Position numbers and translations under genes: made by a program. A stretch of 63,116 nt of DNA, counting the filler, from Bipalium vagum (taxonomy: Eukaryota): the NCBI GenBank assembly GCA_037834085.1. It is 3 parts of 3 records of this genome, joined end to end, with 100 filler letters (N's around TTAATTAATTAA, not from the genome) between each part and the next. Parts side by side here need not be neighbours in the genome. Positions count along the whole stretch, not along the records: positions 1 to 22,809 come from JBBMKC010216358.1; 2 more parts are not named here. The stretch is one strand, 5' to 3'. Every line of letters starts with the position of its first letter. Positions within the stretch are counted from its first letter, which is position 1. Under the pieces are notes generated by a model, which was not told the origin of the DNA, did no database searches, and saw nothing but the letters and a program-made list of their open reading frames with translations. Positions 5,801 to 42,860 of the stretch are shown here, in pieces.

Positions 5801-8800
5801 CATCATACCTCTTGAACTTTCAATTTCATATCGCGCAATTCTTCGTCGGTTTTCTTGAAATTTTGGTGTTGTATTTGTCTTTCCTCTTCCAATTGTTTCA
5901 CGCGCATTTGAGTCGTCTTCGCTTCAGTTTTCATTTTACTAATATACAATCGTATAACTGTAAACTCCTCATCGATTTTCTCAATTCCAGCAAATGAAGG
6001 CTTCTATAAATCGACTTAAACACAAAACAAATGAATTTAATTATTTACACTAAGCTGATCACTCATACATTCTCCAACGTCACCGAGATCCTTAATTAAA
6101 CTATTGAACATTTCCGTGTATTTCTTTTTCTGCGTCGTGTAATTTTCCTTTAATTGTTGTAATTCATTGTCTTTAGTATTGATATTTTGAGTCTGCTGAT
6201 TTATCTGTTCTTGCATATCTTCGAGTTCGTGGGTTCGGTTTTGAATTTCTTGAATTTTCTGATCATAATTCATTGCCAATTCCTCAAGAGCTTGAAGTAC
6301 TTCTTTGACTTCTTCTTTACTGGATTCATTTTCGCCCTACAAAATTTACAATGAATACTTACTTAAATGTTTAATGGAATTTAGATACCTGCAATCGAGT
6401 GAATTCTGATTGAATCCGTTCCTGGTCTTGTCTAAGACTTTTGATTAATTCATCCTGCTCTTCTATTTGTTGTTTAAGTCTTTCAACAAATTGGGCTTGT
6501 TTGTTAATTTCTTCATCTTTATCATCAAGTAATCTGTATAACTCGTTTACCGACGAACTTTCTCCGATTTGAGCTACGTTTGAAAATATATAATGATTAG
6601 AAAGTCTACCTATCCAAGTCACTCATTTAAATTTGTTATAAAAAAAACTGTTCAAGAGGAAACAAAAATATTTTATTTCTATTTCAACATTATAGTAATT
6701 CATAAGTAATTAAGTTTATTATTTAAAATAATAAAAAAACAAAATTAGTAAAAACAAAAGTAAAGGCCATTGAATCAATAGTTTTAAACTAGTTTTTGAA
6801 TCTCTTGTTGGTACCATTCCTTGTTCTTGGACCTGAAAAACTCTTAGCTTTCAATCTACGCCCTAGGAGAAAATGTACCACTGATCAAAAAAGGTGGTAA
6901 TCCAATAGGCCTATATTGGAACTGTATGCTGGATGTGATAACAGTTCAATAGATTCTCATTCTTTGATTTTCTCGATTGTTTTCTTGGCAGTGTGCTGGT
7001 TTTTATTATTGTGCTGTGAGATCACCCGCTTTCTATTGACAAATGCCGGATATTTCAGATTTAGTTTTTCAAACATTCGATCCAATTGAGCACAATATAG
7101 GTCTGCGTCTAGTGATATACTATTTGAAATCAATTTGAAGTTGATTATGCCTTGGAAATTCCACCAAACGCACAATAATGTCTTCTGTGAGAATTGGTCT
7201 CTGCTTGGAACAGGTTGCTTGCTCAGAGTCCAACAACTGATTATTTTTGTGATGATTTGTGATGATCACCAGAAGTTATAATTTGTCTAATGAATCGATC
7301 ATCCCTCGGATTTTGCAGCAGCTTTCTACACATTGACCATAATTTTAGGTCAAATCGTGAGGTACTTCTCTACATCGTATATTGACCATACCGATTTCTT
7401 TAAGGTGTCGGACAACTGTTGCTTTGGAAATACCTAGATCAGCAGACAATATTCGAGTGTAAGTCGATCGTTTTATCTCAACATTGCGTAGCGCTTCCTG
7501 ATTTACAGTTACTGGTCTACCGTATAGAACATGTCAACATTAAATATTTTGAACCAGATTTGGACTATACGAATATTTTTCTGGCAGCTTCACTATATCA
7601 AGGCAGAGTGCGAATTTCAAAATTTTTCCATTTTTATTTCAGCTAAAATAACATTTATAACATAATTTAAGTAACCCAATGGTAGAAAATTTATTAAATT
7701 TTAAATTGATATATAAATCGATATATTCAAATTTTTTATCAACTAAAAAATTACTTTGAACTACTTAAACAAAATAATAATTACTTATGAATACAATCCT
7801 TTACTCACAAAAGAGAAAGTTCTCTGAATTTGAACGTAATTATTATGGTCACAATAATTTAATAAATTTATGGTCACAATTCTCAAAATAATAAACACGT
7901 TAAATTTTTTTATCAAATAAAACTAATCACTGAAATCAAAATAAACAGAAATATTTTAAAATACTGAGATACAAAAGTTAATATTATAAAACTGGATAGA
8001 AGTATGTGAAAATATAAACGAGTAAGATAAAAATACTTACAAAAGAATTTCATAAATTTATTGATTTGCAAAAAATAATCTTTAATAATTTCAGAAAAAT
8101 TTACAAACATAACACAACGATCAGAAAGATTAAGAAAAAATGTCACTTTAATGACACAATTCCTATGTTTAAAATTCGATAGAAAATATAATTCCCTTTA
8201 TTATTTCACTGAAAATATCAATTATGAACAAAGAATTGTGTGGAGAATTATGAATAAGCTCTAATGAGTTAGTAAAAGATATGGTGAGAAGTTAAATGAT
8301 GTAATAAAATCAGAAAACAAGCATAAGTGGTTCACAAGGATTCCTATAATAAATAACGAATATATGACAGAATCAAAAGTTACTGGTCCAGCACAAAAAT
8401 ATTTTTATAAGAAAATTTCCGAATTTTTTATATTTAAATGTATTAAAACAACATTTAAAGAATAAATTTTAGATCAAACCAGTTATTAATTTTAATAAAA
8501 TTTATTGAAAATATCTTAAATTTTACTAATTATTACCTGTTCTTATTTTCTGATTATATATATCCGAATTAAGCCTATTCAAACTGTCCGTAGATGCAGA
8601 AATAAGTCCCAGTTGACTATTTGTCATTTCTTTAATTTCTTCAGCAAGTTGATTATACTGAGATTCAGTAAACCACTCGTTTTGATTTAATTTTTCACCT
8701 AAAATTATAATCGTCAAGAAAGGTAAAACTTGAAAAAAACACGTGAAAAAGATACCAGCTCGCCATTTTTTAATCTCTGCCTCCAATTTCATGATAATGG

Positions 8801-11213
8801 CTTTAAGTTGTTTATTACGTTGTTTTTCTTTCTCGTATCTTCTCCTCCATTCTTCAGCTGTCAATTCTTCGTTCACACTGACACAGTTTTTAATAGTTTT
8901 CGCTCTCATACCAAACATCAAAGTTGATTTAGTTTCTGCATCATTAAATTCTGCAGGAGAACAACAAATAACCATAGTAGTGCGAGCATTGCCACCGAGA
9001 GATTCTTGGAGTATTCTAGTCAATTTTGAATCTCGATATGGAATATGTGCCTAGTTTAAAGAATTAGGGCTTATTTTAAAAAAGTCCTAACAATAACTAT
9101 TCAGTAACATTTTAGAAAATTAAAACTTATTTTATTAAATCATTAAGCAAAACAGGATTTTATTTTGCACGAATTGTGTTCTGAATTATAGGCTAACTAA
9201 AAAATCAATAAAGTTTTGTTGGAATTATTAATGAATTGGTGGACAAAGAATTACATTTATTATTAAATAATTTTTATAAATATATACTGTGAATTTAATC
9301 ACCAGGAAAAAATTCTCTCATATACACACAAACCGAGTGATTGTGACTTCAATTTTCTGCTTTAAAAATCAATTCCAGAACTAACTTTCGTAGAAAAATA
9401 TTTTTCTCGAAATTTCTTACTGTCAAAAATAATAAATTAATAATCTTTTTTATATTCCAAAAATAATTATAATTTGAATTTTAGTTTACATCAAAAGGAT
9501 TAAATAAAACGGTAAAAACCTAATAATATTAAATGGATCTGAAGTCAAAATGACTTAATACTAATTTTCATATTTATGCAATAAATTATTTTTATCAATG
9601 TTCAGTAGACAGTGAAATTACTGTCATAACTAAAATCATAATAGAACGAATGTGCACATGTGATTCGAATGAAGCACATAAATTTTCGAATATCGATTAT
9701 TTTAAAATTAATATCTCATTAATTATACATCAATAAAAAATAACAATTAAAAAATGAATGAATATTCTTATGAATATTCAAGACGAAACTATAACTATAC
9801 GTAAATATTTTAAGTAAAATATCAATAAATTACACTGCCTTCCACCAATGCATTGATTACATTCCCCAATGCAGACAAGGATTTATTGATGTTTTTAGCC
9901 TCATCAAGAACAGTTCCTTCTGCACCGGTTTTTGCCACTTTCTCACTTCCTGCCAAATCAACAAGATATAACTTCCCGTGTAATTTTTTCTGAGTTTCTA
10001 AATTTTCCTGTTTGACTTGAATCATAAACACTGAATGACTTCTACTACTATGTTCGTTCATATCTAAATATTCTTAGAACAACTGAAAACGTTAATAATC
10101 TCCTCACTTGTAACAGACACATGTCGATTTGCTTTTCCTTCATCAATCACATCAAATACCTCTTCAGGGCTAGAAACAAACCTTTCTGTTGCTCCCTTCA
10201 TCAAAATTTAATTCAAATACAAAATTCAAATAATAGCAAAACCTTTACAAATGGAACTCGATCTTTATCTTCATGCACTGATAAATTAGTTTTCGATACT
10301 GCAAAAAAGATTTTTTTAATACTTTAGTTTTAGATATACTTGATTTCCTAAATTATTTTAATATTATTTATCTCAATCTGTATAATTTTTGGTACACATG
10401 TGAATTTATAATTTCTATATATTATATCACAAATTCTACACAATAAAGTTAGAAATATTTTATAGAAATAGATAAAATATATATAACTAAAGAATAGATT
10501 TTAATTTTAAAGAAAAGCTGTGCCGATTTAACACTTGATATATCATAAATCTTTATAAAACATTTGGAATTAATGTTTTTTTAAAAATTGATTAATTTCT
10601 AGAATACTTAATACTCATTATACAATTTTAATTTGATAGTAAGAAATTCATACCATCAAGCAAATCTCTGATTTTATCCAGATATATTTCGAAATATGAG
10701 ACCTAATATAATAATTAATAAATATTGATTACTTTATGATTATTGAAACCTTAATATGAAATTCTAAATTTTCATCCATAGTATAAATATGATCAAATAT
10801 GTCATGAATAATTCTAGGAATTATCCCTTGATATTCTGGATCACCCAAAACTCCTTCCATAGTAAATGTTTTACCACTAGCCGTTTGACCATATGCAAAA
10901 ATTGTTCCATTATAACCACTCAAAACATCAGCAACAATTGGCTTCGCAACAACCTCATATACTGCTGCTTGAGTTGATGTATGCTGCAAAACTCTGTCGA
11001 AAGTGAACGTGCGTCCCTAAAAATTAGATCAATCCATTCTTTACATGTGCGAAAAAATATAACTAATAAAAATGATCTAGAAAATAAACCTACTTGAATA
11101 ACGACCGAATTATCCGTTGATGGAGGAAAAGAAAGACAGCTCTTGCTTTTAAGATTAGTTTCATTTACATTTAAAGGTCTAACTCGACATACAACTTTAA
11201 TACTTTCTGACAT
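2811..11213 (-). CDS. Khc: Kinesin-1 heavy chain (KIF5/Khc orthologue), about 15 exons
   Basis: ATG at 11213 ([13 protein letters not shown]). P-loop GQTASGKT (~10870), switch I NEHSSRSH and switch II DLAGSE (9822-10061), LGGNARTT and neck [17 protein letters not shown] (8526-9051), coiled-coil exons 4920-6580. The last exon 2811-3068 follows an AG acceptor ([18 protein letters not shown]...QIAKPIR, the IAK autoinhibitory motif). Introns checked are GT-AG. Confidence 0.97.
6770..7680 (-). mobile_element. Degenerate mariner (Tc1/mariner) transposase inside a kinesin intron
   Basis: ORF 6957-7175 [11 protein letters not shown]...LYCAQLDRM...[11 protein letters not shown] is the typical mariner catalytic region; flanking frames are broken. 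Confidence 0.85.
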
Positions 11214-11819
11214 TGTTTACAAAATATTTGCAACGATATGGTAATTAAATATTTATATATTTATTAACTAGATTATTTAAACAAAGTGACATTGTCTATA
11301 TATTAGTATTCTAAATTTTAAAAATTATATTTTACTCTAAATTTGTATTTATAATAATTCATTGTGCTACAAGTAATTTACTTTATACAAATAAAGAATT
11401 ATTATTCATAAGATATAATACCAATAATTTTGAAAGAAATAAGGGATTTTGTATTAGAAAGAGTTTAAAATCCATAATAACAATAAAATATAAATGCATT
11501 TTATAATTTTAGTTTATTAAATAAAAAATTTTATTATAAAAAAAATTAATGTACTTAAATACATAAAAATTAAAAGAAAAATAATAATTTTTAACATAGA
11601 CCCAAAAAACGCACTCAACTTTAAAATCGATTAGGAGCTGATTCACAAGCCGCTTGACAGTTTATTGACGATTAAATTAAATAGTAATTATTTGTATTTT
11701 ATCATTTAAAACTTATTGACTTAAATTTATTATTTTCTTCAATGTGATTGATTTTGTTTGAGATCACAATTTACTGACTATGCTTTCAAATACAAAAATA
11801 AATTTGAAAAAGGTTATAC

Positions 11820-12457
11820 CGCAAAATCGGCGACGTTCGCCACAATGGTTGGATAGAAATAAAACTCCAAAACATTTCCCAAAGCCAAATTTCTACAATA
11901 AAAAAATTATGGTGACTATTTGGTAGCCCATGGCCGGTCTGATCCATCACAGCTTCCTAAATATGGGCGAGACTATTACAGCAGAAACATACTGCCAGCA
12001 AATAGAGAAAATACATAGGAAACTTCGAGTCATCTGTCCGGGACTGGTCAATAGAAAAGGTCCAATTCTGCTGCACGACAATGCACGACAATGCACGCCC
12101 ACAATGGCACAAACAACATTGCAGAAAATAAACAATTTGGGCTACGAGATTTTGACTCATCCTCCATGTTCTTCAGACCTCTCACCAACAGATTTCCATT
12201 TCTTTAAGGCTCTGGATAATTTCTTGGTCAATAGGCGTTTCGAAATCCGAGCCAATGCTGAAATGTCCTTTGAGGAGTTTCTTGCCTCCAGGAACAAAGT
12301 TTTTCATTCCACAGGCATGAATAAACTCATCACTAGTTGGTAGAAATATATTGACTTGCATGGAAATTATCTTGATAATTAAAGTTTATTTCCCATTGAA
12401 TTATGACATTTTTACTTTTATAGCTGTAAAACGACATTATTTTTGCACCAACCTAAT
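11820..12457 (+). mobile_element. 5'-truncated mariner transposon (DD34D type) with right TIR
   Basis: ORF 11930-12343 has ILLHDNAR and HPPCSSDLSPTDFHFF. A mariner-type TIR end aaaacgacattatttttgcaccaacctaata lies at about 12428-12457. Confidence 0.9.
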
Positions 12458-13159
12458 ATATTTAAATATTAAAGTTGTTTTAATTTTTAAAATTTTTAAT
12501 TAGTATTTATTTATTTAATTATATAAAAAACAAGATGAAAAAAAGCAGCAGAATAATTGCAATTTCCTACAATTCCACTATTAGAAATATTCGGTAAACT
12601 AATAGATGATGACGAATACTTAATAGATTGTGATTGTAACCCTCGAAAAACAAATATAATTCAGGTACATTATCCTGGTACTCAAAAACAAACAACGATA
12701 ACCGAAATAATAGATCTGACAGATACCTTAAAAGAAGCACAAATTCTCCCTAAGGAAGTAGAACCAGAGTATTGTGAAGTTCCTAAAGAATCAGAGGAAG
12801 AAAAACCATTACAGCAGGAAAAGCACGAAATAGTCCATAAGGTATGGCAGGAAATGGATCAAACTGATGTTGTATTACATGAAATTTTAGAACAAGATTA
12901 TCAACCCCTTGCTCAAATGAACCCACGATATTGGCCCACTGATATAGATGATGCGCAAATATCAGAAGATAACAATGAGCTTAAAATCCCAGAGTACAAT
13001 TCCACCTAGAGATAAGCCGACAACATCACAAGCAAGAGACCAAACTATACAAACTGATATAGTTTCAGGTTCGCAAGTAGGAACTCAGAAACCAGCAATC
13101 AAAATTAAAAAACCAAACCCTGTATCGGAAAGTATACCCTACATTAGGCAGTTAACAAA

Positions 13160-13600
13160 AACGGATACGATAAATCAAATAAAACAAAACCTTATATTTA
13201 AACAAGCGCAAAAATTGGCCGAACAAGTAAACAGTGATTTTGAAAATGAAAACATTCCAAATGAGCTGCTACACAATGTTACTACCATAATAAATGCCTT
13301 GCAAACTGATAATTGCCCGAATAACAGTGAAAATTATAATTTAATAAATAAGATAAAAAATCTAATTCCCAAAATCAAAAGCTTAAATGATATGAACCTA
13401 TCTCAAGTACAAGACCTCATCACAAACACACCCAATCAAGGAACATGTCTAACGGGACTCACAATTTTAATTCAACAGGCAATGCAAAGTATTAAACAAT
13501 CCCCAGAAAAAATACAAAGAATCATCAGAGATACTACAATGAATATAAAAGAAATAGTGGAACCCTTTCTTGAAAATTTGGGAGGATGGCAAACGCTAAA
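13160..13600 (+). pseudogene. Putative Bcl-2-like domain within the retroelement polyprotein
   Basis: Helical segment with BH3-like QAQKLAEQVNSDFE, BH1-like TPNQGTCLTGLTIL (cf. NWGRIVAFF) and BH2-like EPFLENLGGWQTL (cf. WIQDNGGWDAF), in the correct order and followed by a hydrophobic anchor. Confidence 0.55.
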
Positions 13601-13642
13601 TGCAAATCCTACAACAAATCCAACAAGTAGCAGTAACTCAAA

Positions 13643-15457
13643 TATGGTACAATGGATGATGATGATGATGTTAATGTTTTCACTGATTAAAACCGGAGGA
13701 GGATTGATAGCATATGATTCTGCGAATCCGAAATTTGGAAAAATATATTCCCTTATAGACACACAAGAATGCACTTACTTATCATCTAGTAATCTCACAG
13801 CCAAAACATCAGCTTATTATGTCTATCAAGAAGGTGATTACTTCCGTACGCACGCAAAGGAGTGCGAGTAACAGCCGAAACATGTGAAAATGCTTTCCAA
13901 TTTAATAAAATCCGAATAGATGACAAAAAACCCATTGCCGTCAAAGAAAATACGATTACTAGGCAAATAGTTACACGAGGATCAATAAATTATGATGGAA
14001 AATGTGATGGAGAACAGAAAAAGGTATCCGGACAGGACGTCAACGAGGTGGTAGACATAGAGGACTATCAAGTTGAACTACTTACTTATGAAGGAGTATT
14101 TGATGTCATTACTGGACAATTATTATCTAAACCAAGTTGCAATCTAAAAAAGGGATATTGTGTCACGCAAGAAGCAGCATTATTGTATGATAATAATAAA
14201 GATCACTGTAACCTGAGAAGTCTGAAATTGACAAACTTTCATGAAATAACAGGCGTACGACTTAACCCAGCCAGAATAAATATACAAAAATTCCAGAAAA
14301 TTACCGAACAGCCCCGAGGAGAAGTTCTGCTATAGATGAAGCAAAAACACCTACTGTTCTAGTAACAACGGATAGAAAGGAACTAATCCGATTGATTATT
14401 AAGAAACAAGTAGTAAAATGTGGAGTAGCAGTATTTGAAACCAATTATAAAGGAATATACGTCACTAAGGACAGAGTATCAAAACCAATGCCAAAAGATA
14501 GCTCAGACATCAAGATAAATATGTATTTAAATAATAAAATCGATTATCTATATCATGATTTACAGACACAATTAAAGGATGTATATCAAGAGACTATTCT
14601 AAATAACTGCAAATTAGGACGAGAAATATTAAAAAATTGGTTACTTTTAGCCATTAATAATCACGAACTAACATCACCCCTATTAGTACAGGATGGCGGT
14701 TTTGGTTGTAAAATGGGCGAAGCCTTGTACACGTACAAATGCGAGAAAGTAAATGTCCCATTAGCAAAATTCAATGAATGTACTAGTGACTTACCTATTA
14801 TTTATCAAAAGAAACTACGGTTCATTTCCCCATTAACTCGAATAATACTAGAAGTAAATGTGCAGCTTCAAATAGCTATGTGGTCCTATTATATCCCCTT
14901 TATATAATATCGGAGAACAATGGATATCCTTACCACAGAGGAAACCACTAAGAGAAAAAGTACAAACCATAAAGGGAATAGAAATGCAAAATATGGTTGA
15001 GTTTACACCTTTACCTTCTATTAATGAAGGAGAGATATATTCTCCCGAAGACATTGATCAGGTCAGGAAAGTAATACTATTTCCTCAGTCACAAGAGAGA
15101 GGTATAATATAAATGATCACAAAAATTTACAATGCCCAGGAAGGTAAAATGGATTACAACCTATTATTTGGAGCAGACCATTATTTTATACATGCAGCAA
15201 AAAATGTCATCACGTATATTTGGGGAGGTTTTAATACATTTGGTACATGGATTGTCAGATTTTCAGGTGTATACTTCATTTGCCAAATACTAAGAGGAAT
15301 CGGTAGCAGTTTCATGTCAGGTCGTAGTTTACATCACGCACTAGAATGCTCATGGAAACTAATTTTAGCCAGATGCCCACCAATAGCCAATCGAGAACTG
15401 CACAAAAGACATCGAAAAGACATTGATTTATTGAGGAAACAATGCCATTACATGTAA
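13643..15457 (+). pseudogene. Chuvirus-like (Jingchuvirales-type) envelope glycoprotein, frameshifted
   Basis: Signal-like MVQWMMMMMLMFSLIKTGGG then LIAYD..YSLIDTQEC; GSINYDGKCDG; CNLKKGYC; YLNNKIDYLYHDLQTQLKDVY...CKLGREILKN...GEALYTYKC...ECTSDLPI...FISPLTRII; C-terminal TM WGGFNTFGTW...GRSLHHALECSWKLILA. All are characteristic of chuviral-type glycoproteins. Confidence 0.85.
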
Positions 15458-15869
15458 AAACCCATTACCAGAACCTCAAAGCACAGGCATCATCACCATA
15501 GGAAGCATAATAATAGTAACGATGACAATGGATCAATTCTCCCAAAACCTATAATCACAGAACCCAAAGATTACTGACCTAACTGGGATGTAAAGGAACC
15601 AAAAGACATCTACAGTACCACCTCACAAGTTTATAATAAATTTAAGACTAGTATTATCAAGAAAAGGAGAACACCCTCTGTAATTGAACCAATAGAATTT
15701 CAAACACACCAAACTAGCAGCCTAGATAGAATGCCAAACAGATCAACTGTATATCCCCAATCTGAACTAACGAAAATTCGAAAATCCATTCAAGAAAATG
15801 ATGTTATGATGCGTTTAGGAATACCTCAACGTACATCATGCATGGTAATAGATAAACTAGGTCACATAA

Positions 15870-16170
15870 ACGATAACAGACCATATGTCCGTATCAAAAT
15901 AAATAACCATTCTTTATTAGCCTTAATTGACACAGGTTCAACAGCTTCCCTTATTCAAAAATCAATTCTTACACCTAACGAACTACAAAAAATGGATAAT
16001 ACTAATAATGGTGATAGGCATCGGAAATATGCCATATTGTTTAGCAGGCACATTGAAATACTAAATCATCAAATAAGTTGTAACATCAAAGTTGGAGAAG
16101 ACAATGCACATGAATGCGTACTTGGAATGGATATATTGAAACGAATTTCAGATTTAATGCTAATTTTTAC
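15870..16170 (+). pseudogene. Retropepsin aspartic protease copy 1
   Basis: RPYVRIKINNHSLLALIDTGSTASLI...ECVLGMDIL. Confidence 0.9.
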
Positions 16171-16489
16171 CACTGGTGAAGTCTTTGACGAGAATAAAGT
16201 ACTTACACCAAACGAACCCCTAAGCACTAGCACGATAGCTTGCAATGAAAATACCGATTTCACTAGTGAAATTGTAAATAAATCCGATGACATCATTAAC
16301 TTAATTAAGGAAACAATGGATGAAAACACAAACCGTATAAATCAACCTATACCCAATATTTCAACGTGTAATGATAAAATTGTGCAAGATATATTAGCAG
16401 TAGTTTCCAGTATGGGTCATCAATACGCATTTGGATTGAATGAAGATGGAGTATTTGAACAACTATTTACACATTTATCTATTCTTTTT

Positions 16490-17130
16490 ACCATACCCGA
16501 TCAGTATGGAGATACCCCGCTTCACAACGCTATTCTAAAAGGAAATATTAATCAAGCCAGAGATATAATTCGTATAATCAAAGAAAAATACTGGTGGATG
16601 TTGGATCACGAAGACATTTTTGGTCTTACCCCTTTGATTCTAACACCATCATGCGATACACCGATAGGATTAATGCAAACACTAGTAAACTTAGGCTGTA
16701 GAATTGACAAACGTGACAAAATGGGAAAATCTGTTATTGATTATACACTGGATTCGTGTAATGTCGCTGCCTTACGATTTCTTTTAGATAAATTTAAACA
16801 ACATAATCTAGAACAAATAATAAATTGTTACCCAAACAATTATTATTCGCCATTTCAAAATGCCATAATGAAACACTTTATTCCCAGAGTATAAATGTTG
16901 CTCGAACTTAAAAATGAGGCAGGAGATTATATGGTGAAAATAAACGATCAAAACCCGATGAATGGTCAAACAACATTACATATAGCAGTGATAGCTAGTC
17001 ACCCTCATATTTTAAGACTACTACTAGAAAGACCAGATATAAATACTTACATTCAAAACACTACTGGTGATACAGCCTTAGATGTGGCATATAGAATGAA
17101 GGAATTATATACTGCTGAACTAATTCTGGC
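16490..17130 (+). pseudogene. Ankyrin-repeat array 1 (about 5-6 repeats)
   Basis: DQYGDTPLHNAILKGN, FGLTPLIL, DKMGKSVIDY, YSPFQNAI, NGQTTLHIAV, TGDTALDVA. One in-frame stop at 16892-16894. Confidence 0.9.
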
Positions 17131-17319
17131 CCAAGTAAATATTAGACGGATAAATACCCCATCATTAGTCAATCCATGTTGTGTAATTTCACCCTTAAAT
17201 ACCCATAGCGGTGACAATACTAATATTGATCAACCAACTACATTTTAATACCAAAATTAAAATTGACATATTACCCTCTAGCACATCATGTATGATGATG
17301 GACGGATTAGAAGAAGACC

Positions 17320-17630
17320 AAAGGCTATATGTAGTCATGAAGATAAATGAACATATAATGTTAGCATTAATTGATACGGGTTCCCAAACGTCATGCTTAC
17401 ACAGGGAAATTTTAACAGAACAAGAAGAAGATCGTCTCGAATATAACCCTATGGTAGCATACGGAGTAGGAAATACCCCATATTGCCTCACAGGTACATT
17501 AAATTGCACCATACACTTTCTAAACCAAGTATTTGAACATCCGATGTATATTATCGACTCAAATTCCCGTATTCAAATTCACTTATTTAAAAGGATTCCT
17601 AATTTGGTACTAAATTTACGAACAAATAAA
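17320..17630 (+). pseudogene. Retropepsin aspartic protease copy 2 (C-terminal G-M-D motif missing)
   Basis: RLYVVMKINEHIMLALIDTGSQTSCL...YGVGNTPYCLTG. Confidence 0.85.
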
Positions 17631-17979
17631 ATGTATACAGAAAATCCTCAAGAATCAGGCAATGAAAGTTCTTCATCTAGTGGTGCATCTTCAATTCAGT
17701 CATTTGAAGAGACATTTGGAGTTAGAGAAGAAACAGTAGAGGAAATGAGAGAAGAAAACCGCACAAACGAAAACAATACCTTAAACGAATCAAATCGACA
17801 GATAGAAAAACCAGTCATGATAGTTGCATCTATGCATACCACAGCAAACTCAAATATGCATACAAATGCTCTAAGACAATTCTTCACTGATATGTCAAAA
17901 CTAGCTCATTATTTTGCATTTGGAAGGAAGAAACAAAGGAAGAAACTTTCAACGAAATGGCTAGAAAATTACCCGCTTT

Positions 17980-18630
17980 ATTCACAGTCCCTGACAAGTT
18001 CGGTGATACTCCATTGCACAACGCAATTCTGAAAGGAAACTCAGAAGTAGCACTTGAAATAATCGAAATTATAAAAAATAATTTTAAATGGGTTCTTAAT
18101 TTCGAAAACACTTTTGGACATACACCACTCCTAGCAACACCTGCATGTGATGTTTCATTAAATGTAAAAATCAAATTAGTCGAGAGTGGATGTAAAATAG
18201 ACCATTGGGACAAAGCAGGAAAATCAATTATAGACCATGCTTTAGAAGCTAACAATATAAATGCCCTGCGATACATAATGGTACAAATCCAATGCAAACA
18301 CTTACCCCAAATGTTCCACCGATATCGAAACAATGTGCAAACGTCCTTACATTTAGCGGTGTCATTAAATTTTGTAGAAGCAGTAAAGTTAATGATTGAA
18401 CTTAGAGGATATGATAATGAATTCATGATAGACATAAACGAGAGAAAATATTTAAACGATGAAACATTCCTTCATCTTGCAAGCCGTCATGAAGTGAATA
18501 CAGAAACAATTAAAATACTGCTAAAAAGGCCTGATGTGGATTTATTCCATCAAAATATATACGGTCAAACTGCGCTAGACATGGCCCGAGATAAGCAACT
18601 AACAGAAATTATAACCTTACTAGGCGCAGC
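17980..18630 (+). pseudogene. Ankyrin-repeat array 2 (paralog of array 1)
   Basis: DKFGDTPLHNAILKGN, FGHTPLLA, DKAGKSIIDHA, VQTSLHLAV, DETFLHLAS, YGQTALDMA. Confidence 0.92.
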
Positions 18631-18789
18631 CGAATATAACACCATAATTAATATGCAACAAACCCCTCATTGTTTGATCAAATAGACATATTTTCTGATT
18701 TTAATTTTCACCTTGTAACTAGAAATGACAATGATTCACCACCATCTAGTGTAAGTTGTGTACGAAATTCATTCATAACTAACAAAACC

Positions 18790-19400
18790 CGACCCACGAT
18801 TACGATCAGAGTAAATAAACATAGAGTTCTGGCTCTAGTAGATACTGGAGCACAGACATCTCTTATTGATGCTCGCATTTTAAATGCAGAAGAGCAAGCT
18901 GCAGTAAATACATCACCGATATCAGTAATAGGCGTAGATGGTAAATCAGTACCTTTATTAGGAACATGCAGAAGTATCGTTAGAATAATGGGTCACGATA
19001 TAGATCATACATTGAAAGTAATGGAAAAAAATGAACTTGAGTGTATAATCGGCATGGATATTTTATCCAAAATCCCTGGATTAATTCTTGACTTTGCAAC
19101 TCAACAATTAAAATTCTTTCATCCCAAAAGTTGTAAAAATGCTGATCATGTAGCCGTTGTGCTGGACCAAGCCATTATACCCGCCAAGCACAAACAGATA
19201 TGTCTGTTAGCTACTAATTTACCTAATGGGCAAGAAGTGATGTTTGAACCTTCAGAAAAATTCATTAACAGTAGTAATCTCACCACGCAAGCTACGTTAG
19301 CCATTGTGAATCGTAACCGAATCCCCATAAGAATAGCTAATTTTGACATAAAACCAAGAAAAATCCATCCCGGAATGAGAGTGGGAACTATTAACGAATA
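18790..19400 (+). pseudogene. Retropepsin aspartic protease copy 3 (pol-proximal) plus the beta-rich spacer common in gypsy pol
   Basis: RPTITIRVNKHRVLALVDTGAQTSLI...GVDGKSVPLLG...ECIIGMDIL, followed by IIPAKH...VMFEP...IPIRIAN...IHPGMRVGTI. Confidence 0.9.
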
Positions 19401-19501
19401 TGTTCCACACACAGATACCATAACCCAGCAAAAAAGGCATATGAACCAGTACAAGTAACCACATCTACCCTGACAATTATCTAAAAAAACGGTTCGCTCA
19501 A

Positions 19502-20840
19502 TTGTTAAGAATTTACAAAGATGCATTTGCCAAACATGAATTTGACGTAGGAACATCTAACATTTTACAACATGAAATACGTCTCACAAATCCCCAACCT
19601 ATTAAACAACGAGCTTACCGCACCCCACACACCTTAAAAACGGAGGCGGATAAGCAAATAGCTCATTGGCTAGAGACTGGTATCATTAGCCGTAGTTCAT
19701 CACCATGGTCCTCAGCTATGATAATTGTAAAAAAGAAAGGAGGAGAATGGAGAGTGTGTATAGATTACCGAAAATTAAATGAAGTAACCGTAAAGGATAA
19801 CTATTCACTTCCATTAATTGAAGATATGTTTGACAAATTGGGTACAGCTAAGCTGTTTACCACAATTGATTTACAATCAGGATATATGAACATCAAAGTT
19901 GCCGAACAGTCACGAGAAGCCACAGCATTTATAACAGAAAAAGGTTTATATGAGTTCAATAAGATGCCATTCGGTCTTAGAGGAGCACCCGCCACATTTC
20001 AAAGAGCAATGAACCTTATGCTCATGGACATTGCACATGTCATGGTAGACATAGACGACATTATCGTATTTTCCCCTGACTTCGAAGCCCATATGAAGGA
20101 CATGGAGGAAGTATTAAAAAGAATAAAAGTAGCTGGTTTCAAAATTAAACCCAGAAAATGTGAATGGGGAAGAACTCGGTAAAGTATATAGGGCATATAA
20201 TATCTCAAAATGGCATAGAACCTGATCCTGAAATAATAGAGAAAGTAAAAAATGCAATAGCTCCCAAAACGCCCAAGCAAGTACAAATATTTCTCGGTTT
20301 AGCAAACTATTACCGAAGATTTGTCAAAAACTTTGCCAAAATCGCAGCACCTCTAAATAAACTATTAAAAAAGGAACAGACTTTCAAATGGACTACTGAT
20401 CATCAAACGGCCTTTGATCAATTAAAACAATGTTTAATTTCATCACCAATCCTACGATACCCTGATCCCAAAAGACAATTCGAGCTAATGTGTGATGCTA
20501 GCGGAACTGCTATTGGAGCAGTACTAGGACAAAAAGATAATGAAAACAGAGATTACGCAATTGCATACGCCAGCCTTAGCCTTAAACCCCACGAAAGCAT
20601 TATGCGGTAATAGAACTAGAATGTCTAGCAATCATATTCGGAGTTACAAAATTCCGAACCCATTTATGGGGTCGAGAATTTATTGTGCATACCGATCACA
20701 ATCCTTTAGCTTATCTAGAAAAGCACCGAGACACATCATCCCGCCTTATAAGATGGTCACTTAAACTGCAAGAATACAATTATAAAATAATTTATCGAAA
20801 AGGAAAGGCGAATGCAAATGCAGACGCACTATCCAGAATG
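19502..20840 (+). pseudogene. Reverse transcriptase and RNase H (Ty3/gypsy), frameshifted
   Basis: SSSPWSS, WRVCIDYRKLN, IDLQSGY, MPFGLRGAPATFQR, catalytic DIDD (YxDD mutated), YIGHII, FLGLANYYRRFV, CDASGTAIGAVL, TDHNPL, RLIRWSLKLQEY, GKANANADALSR. Confidence 0.96.
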
Positions 20841-21039
20841 CCTGAAGTATGTTTACTGAGTCAGATAAAAAAGCTTAATACCCTTGACGATCTTAAATGA
20901 GTAATAAGCGACGATTCGGAAATACAAAAAATTGACCACTATATAAAAAATCCATCTCTTGCTACAAATACTCCATATGCAAAATTATTAAAAAAATTTT
21001 CATTGGAATGAAGGCTTATTAAAATATAAAGAGCATTTA

Positions 21040-21235
21040 AATTCAGTTATTTTTGTACCAGAAAGTCTACGAGAATCAGTGTTGGTACAGTATCACGATG
21101 GAACACTTGGTGGACACCTATCAAATCGAAAAACCCGTTCCCGTATCAGTCAAAAGTACTACTGGCCAAATATGATTCAAGATATCAAACAATGGTGTAT
21201 CACGTGTAAAATCTGCCAAACACGTAAAACACAGG
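21040..21235 (+). pseudogene. Integrase N-terminal HHCC zinc finger; catalytic core absent
   Basis: YHDGTLGGHLSNRKT...YYWPNMIQDIKQWCITCKICQ, then an abrupt switch to unrelated AT-rich sequence. Confidence 0.9.
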
Positions 21236-24099: not shown

Positions 24100-25437
24100 A
24101 GTACTAATGTTGAGTGGCTGCGAAGATCGTGTGATATGACTATTTTTCATCGCAATCTAAAATTTCTTCTCTACAGCGTAGATACTTTGAAGAATATGAT
24201 TAGAAAAATTATTTTTTTAAGACTAAATTTTATGTCTTGTTAAAATATGTTGACAACTTTTTTATTAATGAAATTATATTTAAACCTAAAACCAAAGAAC
24301 TAACGCTTCGAAACATTTTTCAATCTTTCAGCATCGTTTTTCGATACGGTATCGGAAAGAACAGCTTTCAAAACATTTTCTACGTCCTTTGATTCTACTG
24401 AAGTTATAGATAATTTTTATGATTGAAAAGAAAAGATCCCACTTAAATCATTTAGTTTTTTTTCCTTTAAAAATATGTCCTGAAATCGACTTCCTTCCCG
24501 TTTAGGTGAAAAACAATTTTCAATCAACAGCTTATCCGCGGAAAAATTAAGAACTAAATTATCATTCATTATTTTGTTTGTATCATCAATTATTTCATGT
24601 GCATTCACATCTACACTTTCAGACGGTTTCGACGAATTCACTTTGAAACCTAGCATTTCATATTCATTATCTCCAATCCCTCGCAACTCAATTATCTCTG
24701 CACAATTATCTGGTCCTTTCAAGAACCATTCCGGTTCCGTGTTTCGATTATTTAATCGAGAATTTAAACTCATTGATGACAACACTTTTTGTTCTTTATT
24801 CTCTTCACGTTTTTCGTCGAGATTAGAATATGCTAAATTAGCCTTTTCTGGTTTATTAATGCCATTGGTATGAACTTTTTCAGTGTTCTTTATTTTGGTC
24901 ACATTACGAGTTTGATTACGATTAAAACGCATTTTATCGTAATCACCTCGACAAGAATTAGATCCCACAGTTTGATATGACTTTCTACTAATACTTATAT
25001 TGTCCTCCGTAATTCGCTTGTTGTTTGTAACTTGACAACCATAATTCCATCGTCTTCGTTCCGGTCTTAAGCTAATATCATCTTTAATTTTACCTGTAAA
25101 ATAATAATTAAAACATGTGATAATTTAACTAATATTATAAAGCCGTACGAACTTTTATTTTCTGAAAACACTGTCGGTTTCACTTCTAAAGAATTTTTAG
25201 AAAGTTCAAAAGACTTAACAGGATCCCATTGATTATCAATGTTAATACACTTTTTATCTAAACTTTTAGGCCATATTACAGAAACCTCAGATTTTCGTAA
25301 TGATACTAATATTTCCTAAATGATAAAAATGCAATTTAACAAATCATTTAATCATTTTTAATTCTTAAAAGCTTAAAACGAACTCTGGGATATATTTTTC
25401 TAGATATTTTAGGAATATTGGTGTCATTATTATCCAT
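24100..25437 (-). CDS. EIF4ENIF1: eIF4E transporter (4E-T / EIF4ENIF1 / Cup-like), multi-exon; 3' end uncertain
   Basis: Exon 1 25384-25437 (MDNNDTNIPKISRKIYPR), exon 2 25153-25315 (EILVSLRKSEVSVIWPKSLD...QWDP), exon 3 from 25093 (DDISLRPERRWNYGCQVT...EPEWFLKGPDNCAEIIELRG...GSRFQDIF). These give the YxxxxLphi eIF4E motif, WDP, the LSPQRR..GC-like motif, the Cup-homology domain EPEWF..GP....IEL.G and the GSRF motif. Splice phases of exons 1-3 are consistent. Confidence 0.85.
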
Positions 25438-41989: not shown

Positions 41990-42860
41990 GAATAGGTGCT
42001 CCAAAAGTTGGCTAGAAAAATCACAAATTTGAGCAATTATTTATTACGAATGGAAAAATAACACTAGCAAAAATGAAACTGTCTCGAAACTTAACGAGGT
42101 GCTTGGTGAAGAAACAATGCAACTGCGAACAGTGCAAAATTGGTTCAAAAAATTCAATAGTGGCAATTTTTTATTGGAAGACAAAGAGAGATCCTTTTCT
42201 CGACCGCCTAGTCACTTGCCATGAAAAGTGGATCTATCATGACAACATAACCAGACGAAAATCGAGGTCGTTGAAAGGACAGCTTCCGCAAAAATTGAAA
42301 AACCCATCTTACACGAAACAAGGTTCTTTTATGCATTGGTGGGACTCTCGTGGAATTATTTTTCAGAAGTTTCTCAAGTCCGGAGAAACCATTAATTCTG
42401 ATATCTGTTGTAACATGCTAAGAAGAGTTCATACCATTATGAAGGAAAACCTGAGAACTTTGATAAACCGAAAACAAATGATTTCCCCCCAAAATAATGC
42501 CAAGCCTCACAAATCAATGAAGTATTTAAGGTTATTCAGGAATAGAACTGGACTCTAATGGAAAATCCGCTATGTAGTTCCGGTATCGCCCCATCCGATT
42601 TTGATTTGTTCCGGGTATTACAAAATCACTTGATGGGTAAATATTTTAAGAGTTCCGATGGTATAAGGAATGAAGTACTTTCTTTCTTTCATTCAAAAGA
42701 TCGATATTTCTTTAATACTGGGATCAATAAACTTCTAAATAGATGGGATGCAGTAATAGAAAAAAATGGGGAATATTGTTAATTTTTTATGATTAATAAA
42801 TTAAATTTAACTTCAGTCTTAGTTTAGTTTTTAATTAAAAATGAAAAAACTTACCTGATA
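41990..42860 (+). mobile_element. Mariner transposase pseudogene
   Basis: FLDRLVTCHEKWIYHDN, WWDSRGII, QNNAKPH, SSGIAPSDFDLFRVLQNHL, INKLLNRWDAVIEKNGEY. Confidence 0.9.

Follow-up and report, generated by a model that had tools for sequence, protein, structure and literature searches.

Tandem protease-ankyrin units in a decayed Burro-type retrotransposon of Bipalium vagum

To our knowledge, retroviruses and long terminal repeat (LTR) retrotransposons have been described with one protease. The described elements closest to the one considered here are Burro/GYPSM1, giant gypsy-like LTR retrotransposons of planarians. They are described as encoding a single huge polyprotein in which a mononegavirus-type envelope protein (env) and domains resembling ubiquitin and BCL2 lie between gag and pol; it also includes ankyrin repeats and one domain placed between protease (PR) and reverse transcriptase (RT), after which come RT, RNase H (RH), and integrase (IN) (PMC6431247). 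The same text describes decayed Burro-type copies, with stops and frameshifts, in Dugesia japonica (PMC6431247). A 63-kb stretch of joined records from the Bipalium vagum assembly GCA_037834085.1, hereafter the window, contains a decayed, truncated Ty3/gypsy element of the Burro/GYPSM1 type, likened to Burro by description rather than by comparison with a reference sequence. It encodes three proteases alternating with two ankyrin (ANK) arrays, in the order PR1-ANK1-PR2-ANK2-PR3.

The window element and Burro/GYPSM1 have in common a BCL2-like domain, an env within the polyprotein, ankyrin repeats, a PR and an RT separated by a further domain, and the order RT-RH-IN. The same description of Burro/GYPSM1 names one protease and neither multiple proteases nor a duplicated PR-ANK unit, although its figure may differ (PMC6431247). 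The element type, the env in the polyprotein, and the BCL2 and ankyrin cargo are already published (PMC6431247). The gag (with its CCHC knuckles), MATH, BIR, and LTR components of Burro-type elements, which measure more than 25–30 kb in total, lie outside the piece that survives here.

Positions given below run along the full 63-kb window, and all cassette features lie on the plus strand, spread over three frames. The pattern [LIVFA][LIVF]D[TS]G[AS] has exactly three matches when the whole window is read in all six frames, with Asp codons at 15,929, 17,373, and 18,841. The intervals are 1,444 nt from PR1 to PR2 and 1,468 nt from PR2 to PR3. A preliminary description of this locus had claimed three DTG proteases about 1.45 kb apart and two paralogous ankyrin arrays; both claims are borne out, and the motifs quoted for each are present. 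We take the three proteases to be retropepsins (clan AA, A2-like). Each open reading frame (ORF) matches Pfam aspartyl-protease families: PR1 (15,860–16,190), best match PF13975 (E 9.7e-08); PR2 (17,305–17,630), PF09668 (E 9.3e-04, which stays below the curated cut-off); and PR3, the pol protease (18,775–19,110), PF13975 (E 9.9e-09). The hydrophobic-hydrophobic-D[TS]G triad is found in 3/3, and PR3 is unbroken, with both the flap and the C-terminal hydrophobic-G-x-D motif. Pfam Ank families match both ANK1 (16,415–17,152), an array of an element-specific ankyrin family, and its paralogue ANK2 (17,900–18,634; PF12796, E 2.9e-17). Linkers of roughly 50–90 residues lie on either side of the arrays.

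Several comparisons identify PR-ANK as the duplicated unit. The ANK1 and ANK2 proteins are 43% identical over 150 residues (E 2e-41) and, past the ANK1 stop, 36% identical over 74 residues (E 2e-13); a codon alignment gives 41% over 220 codons. Self-comparison by blastn yields diagonals at offsets 1,489 (57%, 686 nt) and 1,451 (60%, 237 nt). Protease phylogeny is consistent with this, in that PR1 and PR2 are sisters in two trees (support 93/87 and 86/75). In the ankyrin tree ANK1 and ANK2 are likewise sisters (95/86), joined next by the array of P0058 (85/84), a related polyprotein introduced below.

The duplication bears the marks of age and of protein-level constraint. Identity between ANK1 and ANK2 by codon position is 0.49/0.74/0.40. 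The proportion of differences is 0.71 at synonymous sites (pS) and 0.39 at nonsynonymous sites (pN); with Jukes-Cantor correction dS is 2.1 and dN 0.55, for a dN/dS of about 0.26. Position 2 is kept and position 3 changed in 98 codons, versus 22 with the reverse (p 1e-12), and the arrays hold one in-frame stop where about 33 are expected (the two off-frames hold 52 and 34). In-frame protease pieces show the same codon pattern, the longer pieces with pN/pS of 0.49–0.69, and DTG is kept in all three proteases despite near-saturated synonymous sites. These figures support an old PR-ANK duplication, both units of which were long kept as protein by purifying selection, as the preliminary description had proposed.

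Both units of the cassette recur in diverged copies. One public sequencing run of short contigs, X1, contains the stretch and possibly is the source sample. On 13,600–21,150 it places 4,173 contigs: 344 at 99% identity or more, 698 at 95–99%, 1,609 at 90–95%, and 1,522 under 90%, so that 3,131 are less than 95% alike to the window. All 30 of 30 bins are covered, and only 1 contig matches two places. Summed depth is 2,373–70,619, versus 17–31 for listed single contigs, values from which no copy number is readable. Positions in PR1, ANK1, PR2, and ANK2 are each covered by 13–23 different variant contigs; many diverged contigs therefore cover both units, which leaves a duplication confined to one copy or to the assembly unsupported. 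That the assembly created it, or that a single copy suffered a recent accident, is largely refuted by these variants and is barely credible: the units, only 57–60% alike in DNA, are too diverged for collapse or recent duplication. What speaks for an accident, besides the possible identity of X1 with the source sample and its short contigs, is that a doubled PR-ANK unit is seen only in the window lineage; two arrays occur in 0/11 of the relatives' ankyrin proteins compared. No RNA run is among the listed holders of the stretch, which says nothing about expression.

Relatives place the cassette in a wider setting. An RT search among proteins of 1,620–5,158 residues gave 154 matches, of which the best 120 were taken. 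Nine of these 120 contain the chuvirus-type glycoprotein PF24664, which in the window element lies upstream of PR1; it is in frame in intact relatives and broken in the window copy. No named Burro sequence is among the 120. Five of the nine, with RT 54–66% identical, group with the window (92/96) in an RT tree built from the window and 28 of these 120 proteins, the window joining P0039 at 100/99; the remaining four (RT 41–44%) have one protease each. P0039 reads env-PR-RT, with a single protease, and P0058 reads env-PR(DTA)-ANK-PR-RT, with two. Three D[TS]G proteases occur in P0054 and P0056 (env-PR-C2H2 region-PR-RT-IN-PR-tail) and in P0057 (env-PR-linker-PR-RT-IN-PR-membrane protein). A metagenome scan with the env alignment gave 13 loci from 55 candidates. 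L001 resembles P0039 in type; L008 has a single protease ahead of RT; L006, which is outside the RT tree, is an open frame of 3,426 residues that reads env-PR-PR-membrane protein-PR-RT, with three proteases between env and RT. The other loci are short, broken, or distant. Relatives also contain gag and CCHC.

Thus, of the six long intact frames, five encode two or more proteases and four encode three (P0054, P0056, P0057, and L006, against two in P0058 and one in P0039). Each extra protease stands beside a passenger: ankyrin, C2H2 finger, or membrane protein. Within P0054, P0056, P0057, P0058, and L006, D[TS]G is kept in 8/9 accessory domains, over 20–35% identity. Across the 120 listed proteins, three triad motifs occur in 5 (including P0054, P0056, and P0057) and two in 14; many of these entries resemble fused gene models with several RTs, and the other two of the 5, like the 14, are counted neither way. 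On these sequences, extra proteases would be a trait of the whole clade, new here. P0054 and P0185, a protein of the window's ankyrin family, are each on a 25,841-base contig; if the contig is the same, its element would have proteases numbering four, one of which would be encoded apart, in a PR-ANK-membrane ORF.

The ankyrin family itself was traced by a HMMER search with PR1-ANK1, in which the best 150 of 3,616 matches were examined. Nine of these 150 belong to the window's family (BLAST 83–147 bits, versus at most 60.5 for the others); P0058, together with P0318, which clusters with P0182, brings the total to 11 relatives. ANK2 is 36.5% identical to the ankyrin of P0058 (E 9e-41). Five of the proteins extend far enough upstream to be judged: in P0058, P0171, P0185, and P0318 the ankyrin comes after a protease domain, and in P0178 it does not. 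The six others are too short. P0058, P0171, P0185, and P0318 thus carry the window's ankyrin family behind a protease, but as a single array. Protease-ankyrin pairs also occupy different places in the polyproteins: P0171 reads IN-PR-dead PR(EVG)-ANK-membrane protein; P0185, PR-ANK-membrane protein; and P0318, PR-PR-ANK-hydrophobic segments-PR, with three proteases before RT as in L006. P0175 reads ANK-membrane protein-PR. Word-based searches found no close relative of ANK2 (463–2,000 residues; 19 generic ankyrin matches of 1,557 candidates) and none of PR1-ANK1 (240–767 residues; 0/3,372). Viral contigs gave 0/2 stretches with ANK2 and 0/89 with the env alignment.

Where did the extra proteases come from? 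All three window proteases fall together with that of P0039 (95/97.5 and 94/98 in two trees), and PR3 is 50% identical to the P0039 protease. A separate group, less well supported, unites the accessory proteases of P0054, P0056, and P0057, at 77/92 with that of P0058 and 84/77 without it. The relatives' accessory proteases thus stand apart from PR1 and PR2, which join their lineage's own pol protease; forcing PR1 and PR2 into the accessory group nevertheless is not rejected (approximately unbiased test, p 0.247). A repeated, independent origin of the extra proteases appears likely.

The reading that we favour, and consider reasonably probable, is that an old tandem PR-ANK duplication took place in a clade that sets extra retropepsins beside passengers, and that the extra dimeric proteases likely free those passengers. 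Cargo excision of this kind would fit the comparative placing of proteases and cargo. In such a history, the lineage's own pol protease would have been copied, the two copies enclosing an ankyrin array, to give PR-ANK-PR, the layout intact in P0058; the PR-ANK unit would then have been duplicated. Signal peptidase presumably would cut the single polyprotein at the glycoprotein, so that everything downstream would stay behind on the cytosolic face of the membrane. Retropepsins act as dimers, pairing between chains. The element's proteases would pair in this way and cut at short hydrophobic sites that precede each protease and flank the ankyrin, releasing two diverged ankyrin proteins that may bind host proteins alongside the element's BCL2-like cargo. 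A hydrophobic four-residue word lies 17–34 residues before the Asp in 18/24 proteases, versus a background of 0.18, although the motif was written after these segments had been seen and is a lead only. As such, it fits cleavage sites. A PV[MI]x[VI]A[SP]-like word is also found ahead of three ankyrins: ANK2 and those of P0171 and P0197.

Several points weigh against this. The accessory proteases of two relatives have no canonical triad (DTA in P0058, EVG in P0171). Neither L008 nor P0039/L001, the nearest relative (RT 66%), has an ankyrin, and each makes do with a single protease; elements of this type can therefore dispense with the extras. The branch leading to PR2 is long (1.19, versus 0.38–0.52). 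Selection was measured between paralogues at saturation rather than across genomic copies. The listed contig pieces are at most about 440 bases and none spans a whole unit, so that they leave the domain order of other copies out of sight; one contig-level joint, from 15,840 to 17,588 (depth 29.7), skips about one unit and may represent a single-unit or deleted copy. Finally, the cutting of passengers is deduced from comparison.

Some of these same facts would suit proteases that merely hitch-hike. Here the protease gene would serve as recombination homology for cargo, the pol protease would cut everything in trans, and the copies would be in-frame folded spacers that carry a cleavage site. Of the two flanks of the lone P0039 protease, the N-terminal one (LGIP..TSC/TTC) is retained by PR1 and the C-terminal one by PR3, as expected of a direct duplication around an insert; moreover, P0039 and L008 manage with one protease, and P0058 and P0171 have non-canonical triads. 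Spacers, however, are not expected to keep the triad, and DTG is present in 3/3 window proteases and D[TS]G in 8/9 accessory domains of the five long intact ORFs. Hitch-hiking is unlikely, and active extra proteases that free passengers remain our preferred reading.

The persistence of DTA (P0058) and EVG (P0171) domains in open polyproteins also bears on a regulatory role, in which the extra domains, some of them pseudo-proteases, would form mixed dimers with the pol protease and thereby time or damp processing. Mixed retropepsin dimers can be dominant-negative. Such regulation is quite unlikely: most accessory domains retain the triad; they are only 20–42% identical to their own pol protease, which would be expected to weaken mixed dimers; and their positions track the passengers.

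The preliminary description had further suggested that copies within one chain might dimerise intramolecularly or might specialise in freeing the ankyrin cargo. In the first case, two copies would form a single-chain, pepsin-like enzyme around a looped-out ankyrin. Engineered tethered single-chain retropepsin dimers are present in the PDB, and the linkers of about 50–90 residues beside ANK are compatible with such a fold. But three copies cannot all pair in one chain; the extra proteases of relatives lie about 1,150 residues away, after integrase, or across a passenger with signal and membrane segments; and a likely cleavage word stands ahead of most proteases. Intramolecular pairing is unsupported and highly unlikely.

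The working analogy for the cassette is the multi-protease polyprotein of RNA viruses. In the tandem leader proteases of closteroviruses, PL1/PL2 and 3CL of coronaviruses, and P1/HC-Pro/NIa of potyviruses, duplicated or accessory proteases free accessory proteins from one polyprotein. Those accessory proteases are monomeric cysteine or serine enzymes, able to cut in cis, whereas retropepsins need a dimer. A broader proposal along these lines is tentative, and its chances fall somewhat short of even: the clade, one of enveloped giant retroelements, would have an RNA-virus-like multi-protease design, in which PR-passenger cassettes (ankyrin, C2H2 finger, membrane proteins) are self-releasing, movable modules for expression placed before pol or after integrase; the extra proteases would have arisen by duplication at least twice; and a doubled module would have given the two diverged, host-targeting ankyrins seen here. 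In a literature search, neither an LTR element with several proteases nor a duplicated PR-ANK unit came to light, although Grohme 2018, Lee 2026, or Jurka's Repbase entry may show it; the clade-wide multi-protease design apparently is undescribed.

A clade with two or three proteases, each beside a passenger, would, if real, account for the way Burro-type elements gain host-manipulating cargo within one reading frame while needing neither splicing nor additional promoters. Such a clade would likewise offer natural sets of paralogous retropepsins for studies of specificity and mixed dimers. The cargo of Burro1 is reported to be important for planarian stem cells (Lee et al. 2026, as cited in the excerpted PMC13465017), which makes the release of such cargo a testable question. 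The window ankyrin array matches IkappaB-alpha nearly end to end in a phmmer search (E 2e-08); because designed and unrelated ankyrin proteins score higher, the match is generic. Like IkappaB-alpha and the IkappaB-like viral ankyrins, or vankyrins, the array stands alone and comprises about 240 residues.

The window copy is a dead, truncated pseudogene, so that the selection seen here must have been past selection on the family. Breaks in the cassette number about seven. Two frameshifts that compensate each other interrupt PR1, near 16,005 and 16,057; its flap segment lies in another frame, where 10/13 residues are identical to PR2. ANK1 has an in-frame stop at 16,892–4; a frameshift near 17,250 interrupts the stretch from ANK1 to PR2; the PR2 C-terminal GxD motif is lost near 17,570; ANK2 has a frameshift near 17,925, at its start; and between ANK2 and PR3 a stop at 18,683–5 adjoins a frameshift near 18,690. 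Since most of the X1 depth departs from the window at the lesions near 16,005 (3 contigs) and 17,925 (1 contig), these two probably are private to this copy. This copy, duplicated cassette included, is no longer capable of the processing proposed. The locus alone has little significance; its weight lies in the clade-wide design to which it points.

The rest of the element follows the Ty3/gypsy order PR-RT-RH-IN, as judged by Pfam. From 5' to 3' the parts are a BCL2-like domain, the PF24664 glycoprotein, the cassette, a conserved unnamed domain, RT, RNase H, and an integrase zinc finger, all on the plus strand. Neither gag, nor the integrase core, nor either LTR was found in the window, and the copy is truncated at both ends. 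Its surviving 5' end (12,557–12,673) is a remnant that matches the ubiquitin/UBX-like stretch of relatives (tblastn with P0039 residues 639–677, 49%, E 6e-07); tblastn found no window match to P0039 upstream of it. Only this 39-residue remnant is left of the ubiquitin-like position before BCL2, where relatives score ubiquitin, Rad60-SLD, or UBX. The BCL2-like domain (13,155–13,622) is a predicted fold, modelled by AlphaFold2 on a five-row alignment with a predicted local distance difference test score (pLDDT) of 78.7. All Foldseek rows shown for this model against the PDB (ranks 1–50, some duplicates omitted) are Bcl-2-family chains; the best, KsBcl-2, has probability 1.00 and template modelling score 0.55 with an E of only 0.034. 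Bcl-xL hidden Markov models match the region weakly (E 0.2–1.5). From the single sequence the pLDDT is 41, and phmmer gives nothing relevant.

A hydrophobic signal-like segment and the chuvirus-type (Monjiviricetes) fusion glycoprotein follow at 13,650–15,454, in at least four ORFs (PF24664, E 7.9e-10, 2.6e-30, 1e-08, and 1e-07). This glycoprotein precedes the protease also in P0085, P0086, and P0097, distant gypsy polyproteins (RT 41–42%), and comes after integrase in P0113. Beyond PR3, a domain of about 100 residues (19,110–19,410), conserved in relatives and without Pfam or PDB match, lies at the place of Burro's dUTPase-like domain, its candidate identity. Frameshifted RT and RNase H occupy 19,493–20,897 (PF00078, E 3.3e-31; PF17919, 1.5e-23; PF17917, 1.3e-20), and the integrase zinc finger 21,007–21,228 (PF17921, E 1.7e-23). 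The element is cut off straight after, its last match to relatives being at 21,228.

After integrase, P0039, P0056, P0057, P0058, P0171, and L006 encode a second membrane protein, with a signal-like segment, an ectodomain, and a C-terminal transmembrane helix. It has no convincing Pfam match and may be a second envelope-type or a host-targeting protein; L006 and P0175 have a similar-looking one before the pol protease. Downstream of its polyprotein, L006 has a second ORF (10617–12104) that matches the RNase_T (DEDDh) exonuclease family (E 1.4e-05); the second ORF of L001 (607 residues, 9958–11778) has no Pfam match.

The element forms an island of 34–37% GC (12.55–21.23 kb) within DNA of 24% GC, and (ATT)n runs occur in the window DNA. 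To its left are a kinesin gene with short introns (8,500–11,220, minus strand; PF00225), presumably of the heavy-chain type by its motifs, and a mariner remnant; to its right is AT-rich DNA. This remnant (11,800–12,400) and a second one at 42,016–42,558 are decayed mariner-type transposase sequences (PF01359). An exon of an eIF4E-transporter-like gene is at 24,417–25,124 (minus strand; PF10477, E 2e-07), and by window order the element lies between it and the kinesin gene.

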